Shown here in pieces: positions 2 through 11,134 of a stretch of 11,136 bases of DNA. The stretch's first letter is position 1. Every line of letters begins with the position of its first letter. Source of the DNA: Armatimonadota bacterium. Its GTDB lineage: Bacteria; Vulcanimicrobiota; JACPDS01; JBDRKI01. The translations under genes and the position numbers were made by a program. The stretch is taken from positions 1-11,136 of the forward strand of contig JBDRKI010000106.1 in assembly GCA_043814095.1 (NCBI GenBank), written 5' to 3'. Under the pieces are notes generated by a model. The model worked only from the letters and a program-made list of their open reading frames with translations. It did not search any database and was not told the DNA's origin.

Positions 2-3000
2 GGATTCAAAACCAGAGACATTAATATATTATTAACCGCGCTGGGCCAAGTTAGAGATGATATATCTAAAAAATCAGGGACAGCGACAGTAAAACAAGAC
101 ACAGAACCCCAAAAAATAACGGAACCAACGCAAGCAGTACCTGAAAAAATTGAAATAAAGCCTTTATCAGATGATAAATTTATATCTTTACTGCAAAATG
201 AATATTCAGAAGCAGTTAAACCCTCCCTATGGGCAAGCAGGTTAATTAATCACCTGCTGGTTTCCACAGAGAACTTCTGTCCTAAAGATTTTACCGGCAC
301 AACCGGCTTTACAAGAAAAAATACTCTATCACGCTGGGATAAATTAACCAGCATGATAGAGACAGAGTTTGAATCCGTTATAATGGCAAGCGGGAAACCT
401 GCAATTGAAATGGTTAATAAATACATTACCCTCTTAGACCTGTTTCTAAAGCATGATATAAAAGATGCCGGGGGAAAGAAGATTACAAACCTTATAGACG
501 CATACGCGTACCTTCTTAAAAACCAGGTTGTTTCAGAGACGGATGAACCTTTAGATTTAAGCTGGGGCAAAGATCTCTTTGAATATCATAATACCGACCA
601 CAAAGGATTCTTCAAGTTTCTTGAATATGAAGAACTTGTAAGATTCAGAGACCATCTTAAAGCGGAAAATGATGCTAAAAAATTAAAGAAAGATAAAAAA
701 GCATTTGACAGGGTAAAAAAAGCTTCTTCTTTATTCACTGTGACACATAGAGGCCCTGACACAAGCTCGCCTTCTATATGGAAAAAAACCGCAAAATCAA
801 ACACAAACGGGACAATAACACCGCCCGGGCAGTCAAAAAATTATCCTCCAATAACAGTCCGCCCCGGCGTACTGCCCCATGAGCGCAAGGGATATCCTGC
901 TGCCGGGGGAAGGGCAAAAATACCCTCTACGGGAAGAAAACAGGATCACATAATAGTATTACGGGCGCTTAATGCAAACAAAACCCGCAAAGAAGCCGCC
1001 GGGAAACTTGAAAAATCCGATGTTTATGTATCCGACATATGCAGGGAAATAAGGGAACTGCAGTACGGTGCATCTGAAATATTAACAGAATATGAAAACA
1101 GCACAGGATTAAAGGTTGCGAAAATACTGGAGCTTTGCAAAGATTTAACCTCAAAAAAAGGCATAACAGAAAAAGATCTGCTTGAAGCCATAATAACGAC
1201 AAATTCCTTCAAAGAAGCCGCGGTCCATTTAAACATTAATGATAAGGTGTTTTTAAGAAGGATTAAAAACCTCCGTGAAAAACTGGAACAAGACCCGGTA
1301 AATGCCGGATATATGGCCGGACAGCTTGCCGGAACCCCTGCAGAAGCAAAATTTTATGAAAAATTCAAAAGAAAGCTTCGGCCCTCTGATATTGTAAAAC
1401 TATGCGCCACCAGAACTGATAATAAAACCGTAAAACAAGCAAAACTTATATATGACCTTATGCTGACCAAAAACAGAAATAAAGCGTGCAAATTATCGAG
1501 CCTGCAGGAAGCGGATTTCAATAAAAATATCCGCAAGATCAAAGCTTTAAATGATACAGACCTGCAGCTTCTGGCAGACTCATTAAATAAAAATCATCCC
1601 GAAATAAAAGAAAACCTGAAAAGACCCGCTGAAGCGAAAGACATTAAAGATATTCTTGATTACATAGATTTAAAAGACTCCGCGGATTTAGCGGAAGCTA
1701 TACTTCTTAAAAAATTTACGGGTGATAGCTCCAAACTTAAAAGAATAAACAGAAACACGCTCATAAGAAGAAAAGAAAAGTTTTCTGGGCTGTCCGCAGA
1801 AGATCTTCAGAAAATAGCCGGCATTATAAACAAATTTTACCCGCACATAAAAGAAGCGGCCGGCAGAGATATAACCGTTTCGGATATAAAAACGCTTGAT
1901 GCTCCCCGGGAAAAAGCGCCCGCAATAAAAGAAGAAAAAACCGCGGACACAGAGAAAAATATCCCGGCCACTGATACCGGAACAGCTCCCGGCATCCTAA
2001 CGGTTTTTTCAAAAAGTGAATTATGTCTGTTGGAATATTTAATAAACAACGCGGATACCATCCCTGTCGAAGGTTTCCGGGAATATTTAAAACACAGTTC
2101 AGAATACTTTAATGTTGCTGATACGGATAATCTTTTAAAGAACTTTAATGAAGCGGTTAAAACTCCGGAAAGCGTTAAATTCTTTGCCGGCAAACTTAAG
2201 GTTCCTGAATCCGGTATTCTCGAACTAAAAAAGAAATTACTGGCTGTTGAGAACACCTCAAAGCCTTCTGGGAAAACAAAGCCGGAAATAATTTTCAATG
2301 AAAAAGAACAGACATTTATAAAAGATTTAACTTCAAAAGATAACCTTAAAATCATATTAAACAGGCATAACCTATCGCTTAAAGACGTTGAAAAAATATT
2401 CGGTAAATCCCAGCAGGCCGCTTTAGAAGATATAGCGTTAGCAACGCAAGTTCTTGAAATAGAGAACCTGCTGAAACTCTTCCAGAAAAGACGGGCGGAA
2501 TTAAAACTCATACAAAGACAGAGTAAAAACGGATTTAAAGCTTCTCAGGGCGGCCTGCCGCCCTCCCCTCCTCAGGATTATAGAAACGGCGGCAACGGAT
2601 ATAGAGAAAGAAACTCCCGGATACTTCCTTTAAACGGCAAAGAATCCGGCAACTTAACCAACGGATCAATGATTGACTCCTTCAATAATGTCAGAAGCAA
2701 AGCCCCCGGACAGGATAAAGACATATCAACAGAAACCCGTGATCCGCTTAACCCCGGAGGGCCTAAACCGGCAGGGCTTAAATGGTGGGATGGATTCAAA
2801 AAGCAACATATGCCGGGCTTATATAAATCAGGCATATTATTCCAGGCATTAAGCGATGTGGATTTAAGCATTGTTCTGAGGGAACATGAAATTTCTTCAG
2901 TAGTTAATCAGATATACCGTGAATCGGGATATGAAAAAGCTTTGGAATTTTACAGAAAGCTTATTGAAATAAATAATGAAAAGGAATCCTTTACTAAAGA

Positions 3001-6000
3001 AGAATTAGATTCTGCAAAACCTTATCTTGCTACAATGGCTGTTAACGGTATAATCAAAAAATACGGATTCTACGGACAATTTGCCATAGACAATCCGGTA
3101 AAGTCCATTGCAGCCACTTACAAGGATTTTAATTATCCAATTTTTGATGTGTTAAATACCTTGGAAAAATATGATCAATTCTTTATTGATTTATTTAAAG
3201 CATTAAAAGAGATTGACCCTGCTTTTGTTGATGCGTTCAAAAAAACTTTTAATCCTGAAGATATAAATCAGGCAAAACGGGCTAAAACCATATTGATTGT
3301 AAATGAAGCATTGAGAACTTACGGTTGTAAAAAACATGACAAGCTGGCACACTGCCTGCCCAAAGAAGGCGCCGCATTATATCTAAGAAACCGAATACTT
3401 GATAGCCCTAAAACTTTTAATTTAAATAAAGATAATTATATTTCTTTCTTTACGGAAATAATTGAGAATTTAGGAAAAATTGATCCCGCGCTTGCGCTGG
3501 AATTTTCCGAAGGGCTCTGCTCGGGGCCTGAAGATCCTAAATATATAGTAATATCCTGCAGTAAAAATGAGATAAGATCTCCCTTTGCTGAATATATAGC
3601 TAATAAGATAATTTCCCGGAATGATAATTATAAAGATTATACAGTCGTATCCGCGGGGATAGATGCGCGGGAGGGAGCACCAAACTACTTTATCGTGGCA
3701 GATAAAACAACAGACGAACCCATAGACAGCAAGAAAAAAACAAGAGCCCTTAGCCCTGAGTTAGTAGAAAAAGCTGATATAGCATTCATTGTTCCCGAAC
3801 ATTACCAAGAAGCAGTGGAGAGATATCCCGGACACGCTGATAAGATACTGCCCATGGAACTGCCTCTGACAGTATTTACGGTGCATGAAGGCACAGTAGA
3901 GCTTTACCGTGAAATCATATTCGGGCATATAGAAATGCTCGCGAACTTGAAAAAAGCATTAAGAGGCTATTCTGCCGGACCTCAGGGTGGAACTAAAAAA
4001 ATAATACCCGGCTCATTAGTTGACGCGCATAAAGCAGAAAGAAAAGGCTTTGAAAATACTCAAAGACATGAAAGACAACCTGAAAACGGCAGCACAAGCA
4101 GTCATGACTCCAAAGGCCTGCAGACACCTTCACCCGGAGGCAGCCCTGTATATTTCGAATTTGGAGAAACTTTTATATTTAATCAATTAAGAGAGTCCGT
4201 AACACCGGATACGCTGGAGCTATATATAAGACAACAGGTAAAAGACCCTGATGCGTTTGCCCAAAAAATCAACACATTAACTCAAACAGACGAAGCTTTA
4301 AATAAATTTGCTAAAGAGCATGGGCTTGAAGTAGAAAAAATTGAGTTATTAAAAAGCACACTATCTTCAACGCAAAGCGCAACAGCTTTAACGCGCGATG
4401 AATCAATGCTTCTCAAATCATTAGGCAATCGACGGGTTATGCGATGGGACAAAATCATAAAAAATGCATCTATAGACCCCATGGCTCTGCGGGATAAAGT
4501 TGATAAACTTACCGAAACGACCGATGATAAACGCAGTTTTGCCAAAAAGTATTCTATTTCATTCGGGGAAGTAGACAGTTTAAATCGTGTATTATCCGAA
4601 ATCGTGCAGAAAACAGTTCTAAATAAAAATGAGGAAGCCGTAGTAAACAGACTAAAAAATACTTCCATGGAAGAATGGAAAGACATTATAATAAATTCTG
4701 AAGTTCACCTCGGAAATTTTGCAAAAAAAATAGATACCGTAAGCGCTTTCGATACTGCTAAACAATCTTTCCTTGAAGAATTCAGCTTTACAGAAAGAGG
4801 ACTGACACGCCTGAAAAATATAACATATGAGCTTCAAAAATCAAAACACCTCTCAGAAAGCCAGAAAAACTTACTTTCCCTTTTGAAAATTTCAGATATA
4901 AAAAAGTGGGAAGAGATATTAAATAATGAGATGAAACATGGAACTAAGGACTTAGCAGGTCTTAAATATAAAATCGATGTTTTAACCCGGAATGAAGCCG
5001 GCAGAGCAAAATTCACTAAAGATCATGGTATTGAAAAAATTGATGAATTAAAGAATTCGCTGAATAAAGTTTTAAACGAACAAAACTCACCTAAAACAGA
5101 AATAGAAGAAGGCGGTATTGGTGCAAAAGAATCAGAATCTAACCGCCACAGTAAAATGCCTAATATAAGACCCAACATGCCCCCGCACGCGAAACTGCAT
5201 CAGCGGAGGCCGGAATTAAAAGATACCTCAGCGGCAGTCAAATCAGGAAAAACCATAATGCTGGCTAAGGGTAAAAGCATAACCCTAACGGCGGCGGAAG
5301 AATCAATAATCGCCCTGCGGGGAGATAAAAACCGCAAAACAGCCGTAAAAAAATCCGTACTGGCTTTGAATATAGATGCCGTATCTTTCTTTGAAAAAAT
5401 AGATAAAGCAATCTGGCATGAAGCTTTTACGGCATTTAAAAAAGCCTACGGGCTTAGCGATATAAACCTTGCTGATCTGCATCATATACTAAGAGAATTA
5501 GACGAAGAAATAAAAGTACTGCAAAAACTGAATCAATTAAGAGACAGAAAAGACCGTATAATATCTATCTCAAACAAATTAAAATGGACGATAAAGAAAA
5601 CGGATCAAGCCTATAATAGAGCGCACAGGTATTTCAGAATCAAAGTTTTATCGGAACAAGAACTGGAATCTCTTGCCAAACAAGCAGGATATGAAAATGC
5701 CAAAGACCTGACGGAAGCCGTTAAAGCAAATAGTCCCCCTCCGAATTTAAATGAAAAAGCATTTGAAGCAGGTCTAACAATTACTGTGGGAGATTCAAAA
5801 AAATTCTACGGCTCTATAAGCAATATTATGACAAATATATTAAAACAGGACTTAAACGGGGATATTGCCGGTGTTTTTGCCGCTAAACTAAGAGAATACA
5901 AAAATCCATCTTTTATGATCAACTCCTGCATCAATATATTAAGAGAGTTTAAAAATAAAGGGGTAAAAGACTGCAAAGGTCATGATATTGCCGATATCAT

Positions 6001-9000
6001 ATCCATATATAATTACATGGCTGAAAATAACCTTTTTAAAAAGCCTGCAGAAAATTTAAAAGGCAGTGAAGATGCTTTTAAATGCCTTAACCTTGAATTT
6101 TTTGAAACAATTAAAAAAGAATTTAAAAATGGAAATGGAAACGGAAACGGGGAAAGCGTTCCCGAACTGCTGAGCCCCGGGTTTTTTGAAAGAGTTAGAG
6201 AGGAAATAAAAGATCCGGATATCGGAAGAACTGAAGATTTATACGGGAAAGACTGGTTTGAGATAGCTGATACGCTGCACGAGCGCACAGAGAAAGCTAA
6301 AGCTAAAACCAAAGCTAAGGAAAGCACGCGGGTAAAACCAAGCGAAAAAACAGCTTACATTGACGGCATACCGATGTCGGGTAAAGCCCCTAAAATAGAA
6401 GCAGGGAGTGTCGGCGCGCCCGAGATAAATAACAATCACTCCAAAATGCCTGTAGTAAGGCCTGAGTTTCCGCCGCACGCAAAACTGCACCGTATAACAG
6501 GCGCTATTGATTCCTTAACCCGCAAACTTTTCCCTGATTATTATACAGAGATGAAAATTAATAAAGCGGCTGAAAAGGCGGGAGTAAAAATATCCGGCGA
6601 AAATGATAATCCGGCATCGGAGCTGGAAACCGTATGCAATAATTACGGATGGGATAAAACTCTCAAACTTTACAAGCATATCCTTGAACTTCATAATAAA
6701 GAAAATATATTTAATCAGGATGAGATGCTTGCCGCAAAAAACATTATGCTGAATAAATTAGCGGTAATAGGCGGGATTGAAAAACAGAATATTGACGCAA
6801 AAATAAAGAAAGCTCTGGTTCAATCAATCCGGAACGCTAAATGCGCTACCCCGGAAGATACGGCCGTTTATACAAGGGAAGCTGTTTTAAGAACAAGCTT
6901 AAAAATAGATTGTATTAAGCTTCTTAATGATACCGTTAAGAATTTAGAAAAAATTGATATTAATTATGCCAATAAATTTAGTGCCGGAGCCGCCGGAAAA
7001 CCTGTTGTCAGTATATTACATGTATGCGAACTCCATCAGGTCCGCAGCACCGCGGCGGAATATTTTACAAACCTGCTTCTTTTTGAAAAATACGGAGACA
7101 GATTTACGGTTGAATCCGCCGGCACAAACGCGATAGACGGCCAGCCAACCGCGTTTCTGGTTGATATCGAAGGGATTTCCAGCGGATTAACCGGTATTTC
7201 TAGAAAACTAACCCCTGAGATGATTGAAAAAGCGGATGTCGTCTTCGCGGCAGTCGGCACTGAAGGAACCATAAAGAAAATTATTGAGGAAGCGGAACTG
7301 CCTGAACATCATTATATGAAGATTACAACAGGTTTCTTCCCGCGTTCGATTCAGAAAAAAGAAAATTTCATGCCCATGGTAGAGTATATAGAGGCAAGAG
7401 AGAAAATAAGGAAGGCTTTCGGCGGAAACCTGCCGGTGCCCCCCTCCCCCTGTCCCGGAGAACCGTCCGTTACAAAAGGTTCGGCAATAGACCAGTTTGG
7501 GATGCGGAAAGAGAAGGCAAATCCCGCTACCAAAGAACACAACCGGCTTGGCAGCGCGGTCAAGCCGGAAAAACATGACCGGGCAGAAATACACTGGGGA
7601 GAACTGCATAAAAAAGTTATGCCGGGACATTATTACAGTAAAAAAACCAATGTTAATCTGGCTGCTAAAGAACTTGGTATAACACTGCATAACTCTGATA
7701 TACATAAATTCCCCTCCCTTAAAGTCTATTTTGACAAAATATTTGAAACCATCAATGAAAGACACGGCTGGGATAAAGCCGTAGCCTTTTACAATAAACT
7801 CCTTCAGATAAATACGGAAAAAGGCGGTAAGGTTCTCTCTTCTGAAGATATTAATGAAGCTCAGCTGTTTTTAACAAGAATAGCTGTTAAAAATTCGGCA
7901 AAAGCTAACTCTCTGGAATTATTCTTAATGGATAAATTCACAGTAGAGGCAACTGCAGTTAATTTCAGAGAAGCAGTTCTTTTAAACGTTCTACCTGTTC
8001 AACTTGTTAAAAACTATAACTACATCCAGATATTCAGCAATACCGTACGTGAACTTGAAAAGCTGAATACTGCATTAGCATTTAAATTTAAAACAGCCCT
8101 TGGAGGCGGATACCTTGAAAACATCCTTTTTGTATGTGAACAAAACAAACTAAGGAGCCAGGGAGCGGAATTTTTAGTAAATATGATGTTGGATAAAAAA
8201 TACGGACGCAGGTTCTCGGTTAAATCTGCAGGGACTCGCGCATATGAGGGAGCTGAGACTGCTTGTATGGTGCAGATACAGGGAGAAACTAAATGTAGAA
8301 AAAGTACTACAAAAAAACTTACTCCTGCTCTTATTAAGAACGCTCATATGGTCTTTGTAACTCCGGAAAATTATAAAGTTGTATTTGATATGGTAACAGA
8401 ACTTATAAAAGAAGGAAAACTTGAAGAAAAAGATCTGCAGAAAATCAATAAAAAACTGTTCCCGCCGGGTGCAGGCATGTTATATAATGAAGGCGATTTT
8501 TCATTAATAGTACTATATATAGAGGCAAGAGATACCGTACATAAAGTATTCGGAGCAGATCCTATAAAAGAAGGCGGTATCGGGATAGAAGAACCCTGCT
8601 CTGACCGGCACAGCAAAATGCCTCAAATAAGACCTGAATGGCCTCCTTCCGCAAAAATGCATCACAGCCTTATACAGAAGCTGGGTCATGACAGATATCT
8701 GATAGGAAAACTTGCATTCCGGGATAATGAAATAAATTTCATTAAAGCCCTTAAAGATAATCCATCCTCTAAAATACCATCAATTGCCGGAAGACATAAA
8801 ATAGCGCAACCTTTAACTGTGCTGGTCAGGTTTAATACCCTGTACTATGAAGCAAAAGTTGAGGCAGCCGAGTTCCTGGGATTTGAAAGCTTGAACCAGT
8901 TTCAAAATACCATAACTAATGGTATGCGTGAATTAGGAGCAACCGGCCGGGGTAAATCCAAACCCGGGATAAAAGACGCATTCAAAGCCGGCACTTCCTT

Positions 9001-11134
9001 CCCTGAGAAAGAATTAATCTTAGCATCGGGAGAAAAAATAACTTTTACGGGAGCAGAAGGAAAACTTTTTAATTCCAAGTTTAATCCCAATAACAAAATA
9101 ATGCTAAAAAGAGATATCCTTGATCTGGGTATAAATGGAGTGGAGCTTTTTGAAAAAATAAAAGCCGTGGGAGCTTCGGCAAATGATATTCTCATGCTCA
9201 AAAATATGTATCCCAACCTTAAAGGAAAAAGGTACAGCGACTTATACACAATATTAAAAGAACTCAGCGAAGAAATAATAACATTACGGGAGCTGAGATT
9301 TTTAAAACCCGACCGCGAACGGTTAACAATCCTGGCAAAAAGATTAGGTATGCCTAAAAAATATTCTGATAATATTTACTATAATGCTAAAAAGCTTGTT
9401 GATTCCATGGATGAAAGCCAGAGGGCAAGCTTCGCAAAAATAATAGAAGTCGATAGCGCGGAAAAGCTCACAGAATTAACAAGTCCCGCCAATCAGACTC
9501 AAAAGATAAACAGGAAAGCAAAAGAGCTGGGATTAAACATCAATTCAACTGATTCAAAATACATATATATGGGTCTTGAATCGATAATATCCGATATCCT
9601 GAACGGCATCAAGCCTTCCATGGACAGCAAGCAAATATCCGAGTTTGCCATAACCAGGTTTGAAAAAAGCATTAAAAAATATGACAACCCGTTTACCCCT
9701 CTTAAAACATGCATCAAAGTCTTAAAAGAATTTAAAACTAACCCGAAAAAGCTTTCCTGCGGAAAACCCGTTACAACCATAGTAGATGTATATAATTATA
9801 TGCTGGAAAATGATCTGTTTGACGCTCAAGTTAAAATGAAAATTGAATTAAACGAATACGAAGAACATTTTAACTTCCTTACCCTTGAATTCTTTGAAAA
9901 GTTTATTAAAGATCTAGAAAATAACATGTCTAACGGAAACCTAAACATAGACATAAAAGAAGAATATGACAAAATAGAGCAGGAACTTCTCGAGATATGC
10001 AACGAACTCTATGAACCTCTTGTCATAACTCTATTTAACGCGCAAACTAAAAGAGGTATAACCATAACCGGGCCCGCCAAAGAAAAAATAAAGCAAAACG
10101 CAAAAGATATGATTTTAAAGCCCGATATGCCGAAATTATCGCTTGATTCTGCAAGAACATTAAACTTAAATGCTCATTATGTGGAAACATTACTCAACCA
10201 TATCGATCTTATAAAAGATAATTTTCCGGATAAAGCGCAAAAATTAATCGGAAAATTAAACACTCTGCAAAATTCAATATACGGCTTTAACCTGCACAGG
10301 CAGGGAGAACTTGACATACAGAAACAGCTGAAAATCAATTCCGATAATATCGAAGGACTGCCGGTTGAGAGGGCAGGTAAAAAATATCATGGAAAGTTCC
10401 CCGCCCCTATCCGGCCTGAAGTATTAGGCAATGAGAGGGCTAATTTAAGTTCGAAAAAGACAGCCGGATCAAAAAAACAAGCCGCTGAGCCTAAAACTAC
10501 TCAAAGAATATATTTTACAGAAAAAGAAAAAGAAATACTCCGCTCCCCTATTAACACTGCCCAGAAAACAAGAATAAAACAGGATATCCTTGATGCGAGG
10601 CTGGATCCTATAGAATTCGCATGGAAAGTAAAGAATAAAGTTGATAATCCGGCAAAAAGAGCAAACTTTAAAAGAGATTACGGGCTTAATAATAGAAACT
10701 GTGACGATTTAGTTAATATACTGGAAGAATTTGAAGCCGAAATAACCATTTTAAGAACCATAAGGGAGATACAGCTTGATAAAACAATAAAAGATAAAAG
10801 AAATTATTTAAGGTGGGTCGCGCTTAGATTATTATGGGACCACGATTACATCAAGAAAACCCTTGATCACAGCATAAAATACTACTTTAAGAAGTTGACT
10901 CCCAAACAACAGGAAAGACTGGCGGAAATAACAGGATTTGGAAACGCTGTAGCGCTCAAGAATACTCTTTATCCTCAGGAAAGTAAAATAGAAAAAAGGG
11001 TTGAGGAAAAACTAAGCAAAACAAAGGAAACTTCTGTACCCTTAACCCGGGGCGGGACAAGCGCTATAGTTGACAGATCAGCCGTTGAGAGAGCGGGCAA
11101 AAAACATCGCGGGCAGTTTCCTGTTCCAACAACA
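2..11134 (+). CDS. Giant multi-module protein, internal fragment (>3711 aa, open at both ends), containing 3 LMW-PTP-like domains, HTH-like repeats and repeated helical modules
   Basis: Manual translation of frame +2 (GFKTRDINILLTALG...VERAGKKHRGQFPVPTT) shows no TAA/TAG/TGA across the window. The strand is A-rich with natural K/E/I/N-rich composition. Recognisable domains and internal protein repeats all fall in this frame. Confidence 0.96.
410..661 (+). repeat. Diverged copy of module Q C-terminal subdomain
   Basis: MVNKYITLLDLFLKHDIKDAGGKKITNLIDAYAYLLKNQVV...FKFLEYEE vs MINSCINILREFKNKGVKDCKGHDIADIISIYNYMAENNLF...FKCLNLEF. Confidence 0.6.
956..1897 (+). repeat. Four tandem ~75-90 aa HTH-like units
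   Basis: VLRALNANKTRKEAAGKLEKSDVYVSDICREIREL (956); LLEAIITTNSFKEAAVHLNINDKVFLRRIKNLREKL (1178, LysR/ModE-HTH-like); LIYDLMLTKNRNKACKLSSLQEADFNKNIRKIKAL (1445); LAEAILLKK...KRINRNTLIRRKEKF (1688, Fis-like INRNTL). Units 3 and 4 share tails (LNDTDLQLLADSLNKNHPEIKE / LSAEDLQKIAGIINKFYPHIKE). Confidence 0.6.
3539..3961 (+). other. LMW-PTP/ArsC-fold phosphatase-like domain 1
   Basis: KYIVISCSKNEIRSPFAEY (CX5RS at 3557-3580), YTVVSAGI, TRALSPELVEKADIAFIV. These match, in order and spacing, the LMWPc hallmarks ILFVCxGNxCRSPxAE, VxSAG and RxLxxxxxxxADLI. Confidence 0.85.
4148..5080 (+). repeat. Four tandem ~77-aa helical protein repeats
   Basis: Anchor hydrophobic residues at 4154, 4388, 4619 and 4850 (spacing 234/231/231 bp). 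Shared pattern LxxxExxhhxxL...WxxIh...K(I/V)Dxh...FxxxxG/S...LK. Similarity is at protein level, not exact DNA. Confidence 0.75.
5102..5200 (+). repeat. Inter-module linker motif, strong copy 1
   Basis: IEEGGIGAKESESNRHSKMPNIRPNMPPHAKLH. Confidence 0.9.
5249..6127 (+). repeat. Unknown ~300-aa helical module Q, copy 1
   Basis: Aligns end to end with 9008-9925: IMLAKGKSITLTAAE/LILASGEKITFTGAE; FFEKI/LFEKI; DLHHILRELDEEI/DLYTILKELSEEI; CINILREFK/CIKVLKEFK; IYNYMAENNLF/VYNYMLENDLF; LNLEFFE/LTLEFFE. Confidence 0.85.
6127..6150 (+). repeat. Hexamer microrepeat (aaaYgg)x4 encoding NGNGNGNG
   Basis: aaatgg aaatgg aaacgg aaacgg read directly. Confidence 0.8.
6395..6490 (+). repeat. Inter-module linker motif, strong copy 2
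   Basis: IEAGSVGAPEINNNHSKMPVVRPEFPPHAKLH. Confidence 0.9.
7010..7423 (+). other. LMW-PTP/ArsC-fold phosphatase-like domain 2
   Basis: SILHVCELHQVRSTAAEY (CX5RS at 7025-7048), FTVESAGT, SRKLTPEMIEKADVVFA. Confidence 0.85.
8120..8554 (+). other. LMW-PTP/ArsC-fold phosphatase-like domain 3
   Basis: NILFVCEQNKLRSQGAEF (CX5RS at 8135-8158), FSVKSAGT, TKKLTPALIKNAHMVFV. Clear paralogue of domain 2 (KYGDRFTVESAGT vs KYGRRFSVKSAGT; YIEAR in both; identical 17-mer tatatagaggcaagaga at 7385 and 8516). Confidence 0.87.
8564..8662 (+). repeat. Inter-module linker motif, strong copy 3
   Basis: IKEGGIGIEEPCSDRHSKMPQIRPEWPPSAKMH. Confidence 0.9.
9008..9925 (+). repeat. Unknown ~300-aa helical module Q, copy 2
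   Basis: Same alignment as for copy 1 (5249-6127). Confidence 0.85.
10349..10447 (+). repeat. Linker motif variant (VERAGKK type), copy 1
   Basis: IEGLPVERAGKKYHGKFPAPIRPEVLGNERANL; HGKFPAPIRPE parallels HSKMPxIRPE. Confidence 0.8.
10508..10975 (+). repeat. Module Q, N-terminal half only (copy 3)
   Basis: IYFTEKE...IKQDILD (vs LKRDILD)...FKRDYGL (vs FKKAYGL)...DLVNILEEFEAEITILR (vs DLYTILKELSEEIITLR)...LAEITGFGNA (vs LAKQAGYENA). Confidence 0.75.

Follow-up and report, generated by a model that had tools for sequence, protein, structure and literature searches.

Giant bacterial genes are badly under-studied, being split up in assemblies and consisting for the most part of sequence without any match. 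In polyvalent proteins, the processing metallopeptidase has been unified with the lethal-factor superfamily through HHpred comparisons (Iyer et al. 2017, PMC5512222), and MARTX toxins are described as freeing modular effector domains by inter-domain cleavage (PMC6315884). The giant proteins of Omnitrophota, as characterized in two reports (10.1101/2023.11.21.568195, 10.64898/2026.06.07.730766), are mostly rich in transmembrane segments, or carry SecA-like, dockerin, lectin, C39/S8 or many metabolic Pfam domains. Here we analyze a contig of 11,136 nucleotides from an Armatimonadota bacterium (JBDRKI010000106.1, assembly GCA_043814095.1), hereafter the window, which lies wholly inside a single protein-coding gene longer than 11.1 kb. 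The encoded protein is a string of cassettes joined by Gly/Pro-rich linkers, and three of these cassettes pair a helical domain with a domain of the low-molecular-weight protein tyrosine phosphatase (LMW-PTP) family. We tentatively read the whole as a multi-cargo array.

Translation of frame +2 of the window (nucleotides 2..11134, + strand) returned 3,711 codons with no stop, compared to about 255 stops expected from the base composition, and the other five frames contain 394, 298, 95, 233 and 184 stops. This single open reading frame (ORF) is open at both ends. The initial annotation had described it as an uninterrupted giant frame hidden from the ORF track, and computational translation bears out the frame itself. 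It is indeed absent from the track, but only because the track lists complete ORFs, and a public protein collection already contains a nameless partial protein of 3,712 aa (NCBI source), which matches the query along its whole length at 100% identity and was recorded from one contig of 11,136 bases, the length of the entire window. Between paralogous cassettes, identity is highest at the second codon position and lowest at the third (2 > 1 > 3; 0.64/0.48/0.36 between the third and the second phosphatase-type cassettes, with about 0.28 expected by chance). This order indicates that the cassette copies are old and were kept by selection at the protein level. GC content is even along the window (0.35-0.43), and repeats within its DNA reach no more than 70-74% identity over at most 101 nucleotides, which makes repeat-driven chimerism or misassembly unlikely.

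The coding strand is purine-rich and low in GC (39%), with an AT skew that is strongly positive throughout the + strand (0.14-0.32; A 38%, T 23%), and Lys is the most frequent residue of the translation (431 out of 3,711). Three minus-strand ORFs lie inside the giant frame, at 1837-2511 (-; 224 aa), 7208-7765 (-; 185 aa) and 4282-4686 (-; 134 aa). A Pfam scan of the three returned no match, and we regard them as most probably shadow ORFs of the A-rich coding strand. The window length equals 3 x 3,712, and joining its end to its start would preserve the frame, with CCG as the junction codon. We nevertheless rejected a circular molecule that would be read without end. The termini do not overlap, and the junction would be unnatural because the window starts within a helical unit of its first cassette and ends in a linker. 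Searches of the window detected no Rfam match at E <= 1, no tRNA, no rRNA and no PADLOC family.

We established the order of the cassettes over the whole translation by self-BLAST, alignments and a composition scan. It reads Q0-L1-helical block-L2-PTP1-L3-4x77 aa-L4-Q1-L5-PTP2-L6-PTP3-L7-(unit+Q2+tail)-L8-Q3N-L9, where Q stands for copies of an orphan helical module, PTP for the cassettes with a helical and an LMW-PTP-family domain, and L for the linkers. At least nine cassettes of at least four kinds thus follow each other in one frame, with nine linkers between them, in a beads-on-a-string build. The cassettes have been duplicated, truncated and re-ordered within the gene. The protein is soluble, mostly alpha-helical and devoid of membrane segments within the window, because the highest Kyte-Doolittle mean over any 19 residues is 1.15. 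Apart from LMWPc, no Pfam family scores above its cut-off, and Pfam and NCBIfam scans found no NRPS/PKS, Ig/cadherin or RTX family. Pfam, NCBIfam and self-BLAST therefore agree with the initial annotation of a very long, cassette-built protein, neither NRPS nor adhesin, with phosphatase-type domains. The proposed cassette order also stands, except that the first cassette is more than the C-terminal half of a Q module. Of the two domain types named there, the phosphatases give three Pfam-level matches; the helix-turn-helix (HTH) domains correspond to sub-threshold Pfam matches only. The label 'multi-enzyme' was overstated, as a single enzyme family occurs three times and the remainder is orphan helical sequence.

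The three PTP cassettes occupy 2831..3973 (PTP1, aa 944-1324), 6497..7420 (PTP2, aa 2166-2473) and 7643..8551 (PTP3, aa 2548-2850), on the + strand like all other cassettes and linkers. Each of them is composed of a helical domain of about 175 aa and an LMW-PTP-family domain. When scanned separately against the Pfam family PF01451 (LMWPc, gathering cut-off 23.2 bits), all three pass the threshold, with 28.1 bits for PTP1 (aa 1184-1277, spanning profile positions 3-98 of 144), 23.8 bits for PTP2 (aa 2338-2417) and 32.3 bits for PTP3 (aa 2708-2780); the E-value for the whole protein is 7.1e-20. Self-BLAST identifies PTP1 as a paralog of both PTP2 and PTP3. The motif C-X5-R-[ST] is found exactly three times in the 3,711 aa, each time inside a PTP domain and in the form C-X5-R-S (nt 3557-3580, aa 1186-1193; nt 7025-7048, aa 2342-2349; nt 8135-8158, aa 2712-2719). 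The Cys, Arg and Ser of this P-loop are invariant in all seven aligned rows, and an S-A-G strand follows the loop. A profile of the PTP family, compared to the PDB, matched the PTP of C. jejuni (2gi4, E 5.8e-12) and YwlE (E 6.4e-10).

Structure prediction points in the same direction. The AF2 model of PTP3 (aa 2530-2863; pLDDT 85.3, pTM 0.81) is confident and opens with eight helices (residues 3-172); the rest is an alpha/beta domain, which shows the four-stranded parallel fold of the LMW-PTP family together with an extra beta-hairpin. Foldseek returned 21 PDB matches at E <= 0.001 (best 4.7e-05), almost all of them LMW-PTP, YwlE or Wzb chains. The fit is modest (target TM 0.47-0.56, rmsd 6-10 A) and involves only the alpha/beta half; the helical domain of about 175 aa had no PDB match by Foldseek. 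A Foldseek search of BFVD found no structural match at E <= 0.001. The cut-off scores, the C-X5-R-S loops and the modeled fold with its Foldseek matches all bear out the three phosphatase cassettes that had been proposed. We conclude that the three domains belong to the LMW-PTP family, as confirmed at the family level, and that they are divergent, with an atypical active site. They can probably bind phosphate and form a Cys intermediate. Assignment to the thioredoxin-coupled arsenate reductases (ArsC, pI258 type) was rejected, since the scores are far below the cut-offs (28.7 versus 215 bits for NF010053, 20.9 versus 174.3 bits for TIGR02691). The PTP domains (noted at window positions 8123-8341, in PTP3) also match, in two stretches, phrog_12429, a phage protein family to which no function is assigned (E 3.8e-14). 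By eye, the starts of the three cassettes (2750-2830, 6470-6520 and 7560-7642) share a similar short basic segment that ends in hydrophobic-Pro-(Gly/Asp)-x-Tyr.

The nine linkers account for 543 of the 3,711 residues and measure 32-104 aa each. They are poor in hydrophobic residues and, compared to the rest of the protein, rich in Gly (11.4% versus 4.3%) and Pro (11.8% versus 2.9%). The composition scan placed L1, which is rich in Gly, Pro, Ser and Lys, at 749..943 (aa 250-314), L2 at 2519..2830 (aa 840-943), L3 at 3974..4171 (aa 1325-1390) and L6 at 7421..7642 (aa 2474-2547). Three other linkers, identified by self-BLAST and DNA comparison, host a conserved element of 34 aa that we call class A. 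These are L4 (5090..5221, aa 1697-1740; element at aa 1701-1734), L5 (6317..6496, aa 2106-2165; element at aa 2132-2164) and L7 (8552..8686, aa 2851-2895; element at aa 2855-2888). A second motif, class B, emerged from motif comparison in L8 (10349..10507, aa 3450-3502; motif from aa 3455) and in L9 (11039..11134, aa 3680-3711; motif from aa 3695), which was delimited by composition and is cut by the contig end. In the model of PTP3, the part that belongs to L7 (residues 325-334) has pLDDT below 50.

The class A elements share 65% (L4-L7), 62% (L4-L5) and 50% (L5-L7) amino acid identity, compared to 25-40% between cassettes. Their DNA identity is 72-74%, and the identities by codon position are 0.68/0.88/0.62 for L4. 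The sequences that flank them differ in kind: L4 leads from the 77-aa array to Q1, L5 from Q1 to PTP2, and L7 from PTP3 to the Q2 cassette. Because of these differing flanks, class A counts as an independent, portable element and not simply as the edge of a duplicated cassette. No common origin of the class A and class B motifs was detectable, as the score of the real comparison was equaled by 76 of 500 shuffles. An RNA element within the class A linkers is not supported, given that Rfam returned nothing, no tRNA was found and the consensus fold of the three segments reaches only -7.5 kcal/mol. A DNA recombination site is not supported either, the DNA identity being too low.

To collect relatives, we ran a HMMER pass with aa 1700-2890 against 1.84 billion representative proteins, which returned five proteins at E <= 0.001, one of them the window's own. 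The other four (P0003 to P0006) share with the window only the helical+PTP cassette, with 24-31% identity over 150-330 aa and E-values down to 1.5e-26. P0003 (1,798 aa, MFH1453685.1) and P0004 (1,209 aa, MFH1452791.1) derive from one metagenome-assembled genome, where both are annotated as 'hypothetical protein, partial' of an Armatimonadota bacterium, and both run off their contigs, of 8,864 and 3,628 bases, respectively. Like the window protein, they are built of multiple cassettes with Gly/Pro-rich spacers around the shared helical+PTP cassette. P0003 also carries, by eye, a basic opening segment similar to that of the PTP cassettes. P0005 (492 aa) and P0006 (506 aa) are short predicted proteins that start with Met and contain the PTP cassette. 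The relatives share with the window neither the Q cassette nor the 77-aa array, and no class A or B motif was found in them; they have sub-threshold ATLF-like modules, of which the window has none, and their amino acid composition suggests a genome of higher GC. In particular, P0004 carries HExxH and a match below threshold to ATLF, a zincin family of the lethal-factor type (E 4.7e-05, 23.6 bits, cut-off 27.4). The C-terminal end of P0003 (aa 1740-1798) matches aa 389-449 of P0004 with 39% identity over 62 aa (E 1e-07). The matched stretch of P0004 precedes its second ATLF-like module, and the two fragments repeat the same cassette order. P0003 and P0004 may stem from a single giant gene or from two that resemble each other.

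Other searches returned little else. A word-indexed search of the whole protein against proteins of 2,041-6,495 aa found only the window's own protein, and so did the PTP cassette profile against proteins of 3,148-5,000 aa, a length range poorly aimed for this cassette. The region of the helical block (aa 250-960) had no homolog among proteins of 391-1,245 aa, the ESM Atlas gave no usable match for the helical block or for Q1, and our literature search found no report that combines LMWPc with 'giant protein'. Two scans of 185,579 species-representative genomes detected no relative. The initial annotation had considered that taxonomy could not be assigned from the window, and this agrees with the lack of a relative in these genomes and with the lack of rRNA, tRNA and Rfam matches. 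Judging from these comparisons, the window protein is a near-orphan in public databases.

The cassettes other than PTP, namely four copies or part-copies of Q and arrays of 48- to 80-aa units, belong to no described family. Q0 (2..748, aa 1-249) is a diverged Q copy truncated at its 5' end. The window begins inside the first helical unit of this copy, about 85 residues past its start, a middle piece is missing, and aa 137-210 match aa 1972-2040 of Q1 with 28% identity. Q1 (5222..6316, aa 1741-2105) and Q2 are 29-39% identical by self-BLAST (aa 1736-2049 versus aa 2987-3313). Q2 lies in a larger cassette (8687..10348, aa 2896-3449), where it is preceded by a unit and followed by an extra helical tail (alignment A3). 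The last copy, Q3N (10508..11038, aa 3503-3679), retains only the N-part. Its residues 3499-3649 match aa 1756-1900 of Q1 and aa 3009-3114 of Q2 with 27-31% identity (self-BLAST), and it stops where the C-part of Q1 and Q2 begins (alignment A3). Q0 had no Pfam match, and neither Q1 nor the Q2 cassette had one above cut-off. The AF2 model of Q1 is poor (mean pLDDT 49.8), and its Foldseek search against the PDB returned no match at E <= 0.001. Around nt 6125-6150 (aa ~2043-2050), Q1 bears a short run of alternating Gly and Asn, apparently a low-complexity stretch that expanded locally; the insert found there in Q2 is a different one.

The helical block (944..2518, aa 315-839) was resolved by alignments into four units of about 48 aa (nt 944-1087, 1160-1303, 1427-1570 and 1676-1819; alignment A5) and two of about 80 aa (nt 1994-2245 and 2288-2527; alignment A4). 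Further downstream, four tandem helical units of 77 aa (4172..5089, aa 1391-1696) were recognized from a period of 77 in self-BLAST. They align as one family with the first unit of every Q (nt 5279-5527, 9038-9286 and 10508-10756; alignment A4). The only Pfam matches in the helical block are below threshold: HTH_3 at aa 324-353 (E 0.0019, 18.7 bits, cut-off 23) and HTH_1 at aa 393-429 (E 0.0036, 17.7 bits, cut-off 26.6). Both fall within two of the four short units. Profiles of the units returned no significant PDB match, the best E-value being 0.047 for the nine units of about 80 aa and 1.6 for the four of about 48 aa. A sub-threshold match of the 77-aa array to Nif11 (E 0.0086, 16.8 bits, cut-off 23.8) offers no more than a weak lead to the identity of these units, as only one of nine units matched singly, again below cut-off (E 0.0065).

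The reading that we rank first is that of a multi-cargo, polyprotein-like array in which the conserved linkers act as processing or docking sites. We hold it tentatively and give it less than an even chance. The ranking relies on the analogy with polyvalent proteins, for which cutting by a zincin was proposed, and with MARTX toxins, which undergo inter-effector processing. Each cassette would be an independent functional unit in the chain. The PTP-like cassettes would bind, and probably hydrolyze, phosphate esters on target proteins by means of the Cys nucleophile, perhaps with a slow turnover or with an acid other than that of Asp-Pro, and the fused helical domain would give each of them its choice of target. 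The conserved elements of the linkers would be cut by a protease, or docked by a partner, encoded outside the window. A cassette able to work alone fits the occurrence of the PTP cassette in the Met-starting proteins of about 500 aa, P0005 and P0006. The modeling of PTP3 as one confident unit is also in favor, and so is the conservation of the class A linkers, which are kept better than any cassette and lie between cassettes of differing types. The modular build of P0003 and P0004 and the sub-threshold ATLF match of P0004 point the same way, the latter because it concerns the superfamily with which Iyer et al. 2017 unite the peptidase of polyvalent proteins. In a bolder and rather improbable version, the gene would encode an undescribed bacterial polyprotein, a train of cargo proteins joined by portable cut-or-dock spacers of about 34 aa, the cargo being phosphatase-like enzymes, each with a targeting domain of its own, and orphan helical proteins. 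Intragenic recombination would add, duplicate or truncate the cargo, and one machinery would process all of it.

Several observations weigh against a multi-cargo array. The window, which contains neither end of the gene, has no secretion signal, delivery domain or neighboring gene. In the 3,711 aa, Pfam detected no protease domain, and HExxH does not occur either. No signature domain of polyvalent proteins is present, and the link to these proteins comes from one sub-threshold ATLF match that lies in the relative P0004 and not in the window. A tblastn search of the window protein against 50,697 phage and 72,556 plasmid records returned no match. The linkers raise objections of their own. Neither the class A nor the class B motif was found in the four relatives, and a linker hidden Markov model (HMM) built on six segments performed no better than shuffles: 45 of 250 shuffled sequences equaled its best match in P0003, and it gave no match in P0004, P0005 or P0006. 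Moreover, identity at the third codon position is higher between class A linkers (0.52-0.62) than between cassettes (0.33-0.45), which could reflect recent copying or gene conversion and not function. Double-glycine cleavage sites of the ubiquitin-like or C39 type were rejected, as 10 of the 15 GG dipeptides fall in linkers while about seven are expected from composition. The phosphatase activity can be questioned too. In the LMW-PTP family, the general acid is carried by an Asp-Pro loop, and none of the three PTP domains has an Asp-Pro dipeptide between the P-loop and the domain end. The aligned position before the conserved Pro is occupied by Leu, Phe, Pro or Ile. The domains may therefore be inactive, although the Pfam and PDB profile alignments end before the acid-loop region and another acidic residue is possible there.

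Nearly as likely as the multi-cargo array, and likewise below an even chance, is that the chain remains unprocessed and works as a giant cytoplasmic scaffold or regulatory hub. The linkers would then be flexible tethers and their motifs docking sites for partners of the cell's own, while the PTP-like domains and helical units would organize phospho-signaling or nucleic-acid binding in cis. The absence of signal peptide, transmembrane segment, protease and delivery domain is in favor of a scaffold, although it says little as long as both gene ends lie outside the window. The two short units with sub-threshold HTH matches are also compatible with it. According to one report on long Omnitrophota proteins (10.64898/2026.06.07.730766), repeated Pfam domains are the rule among them, and 59 out of 916 are soluble without signal peptide or transmembrane segment. 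A scaffold of this kind would resemble the classes described for these proteins as 'multi-enzyme' or 'tandem-repeat scaffold', but there is no evidence for an Omnitrophota origin. It also speaks against a scaffold that passive tethers are not expected to be better conserved than the domains they join, and that cassette-sized relatives exist as separate proteins. The two HTH matches could alternatively indicate an array of DNA-binding modules, that is a giant nucleoid-associated protein or transcription regulator to which the PTP-like domains would be accessory. Many units do show, by eye, a pattern of helix, Gly-hydrophobic turn and helix. Since no unit reaches a Pfam cut-off, the unit profiles have no significant PDB match and the model of Q1 is unreliable, we consider such a regulator unlikely.

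A polyvalent protein of a phage or conjugative element, as defined by Iyer et al. 2017, packaged or transferred with the DNA and cut by an in-built metallopeptidase, would account for the many domains in one polypeptide, for the HExxH and ATLF-type zincin match of P0004 and for the similarity of the PTP domain to phrog_12429. It is difficult to reconcile with the negative searches of phage and plasmid collections and of BFVD. Pfam, NCBIfam and PHROGs detected in the window no metallopeptidase, methylase-helicase dyad, ArdC-N or similar domain, and the word 'phosphatase' does not occur in the main text of PMC5512222. We hold this origin to be as doubtful as that of the DNA-binding array. Finally, an artifact, either a chimeric or misassembled contig or non-coding DNA that lacks stops by coincidence, is very improbable. 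The contig does end inside the gene at both sides. Yet a frame without a single one of the expected stops hosts three in-frame domains of Pfam level over 5 kb, and the codon pattern between paralogs, the even GC and the low identity of the internal repeats (at most 74%) all speak for a genuine gene.

The fragment is unusual among giant genes, in that it is soluble, that it consists of enzyme-plus-adaptor cassettes and not of adhesin, RTX or NRPS repeats, and that its spacers are better conserved than its domains. Should the spacers serve for processing or docking, the multi-cargo array would provide a testable model of how many proteins are packed into one translation product, as well as a new group of LMW-PTP-like domains without the canonical acid loop. 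The polyprotein version, if true, would amount to a protein-level cassette system in a lineage for which hardly any relatives have been sequenced. If the chain stays whole, it would be one more orphan giant scaffold, worth cataloguing and unsurprising. Two features deserve to be pursued, namely the portable linkers with their conservation and the helical+PTP cassette.

Compared to the giant proteins of Omnitrophota, as the two reports describe them, the window is alike in its very long gene, fragmented by assembly, in its repeated domains and in the proposed cleavage. It differs in having no transmembrane segment and a single Pfam family above cut-off in a fragment of 3,711 aa. An Omnitrophota-type giant protein, as initially suggested, is therefore not supported, considering also that the named relatives are Armatimonadota. 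With polyvalent proteins, as presented in PMC5512222, the window shares the many unrelated domains in one long chain, which in those proteins are proposed to be freed by proteolysis; the signature domains (metallopeptidase, methylase, helicase, ArdC-N) are absent from the window, which has no phage or plasmid match. The cassette array also recalls the central modular cargo array of MARTX toxins with its processed inter-domain regions, as outlined in PMC6315884. The type of cargo is different, since the window has no RTX or glycine-rich repeats, no InsP6-activated cysteine protease domain and no known MARTX effector. With the LMW-PTPs themselves (PF01451; YwlE of B. subtilis, 2gi4 of C. jejuni, 3js5 of E. 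histolytica), the window domains share the C-X5-R-S loop, the following S-A-G strand and the fold. They align only over the first 77-98 of the 144 profile positions, lack Asp-Pro and have an extra beta-hairpin. Rather than forming a protein of about 150 aa, they occur as three copies, each fused to a helical domain of about 175 aa, within one chain of more than 3,711 aa.

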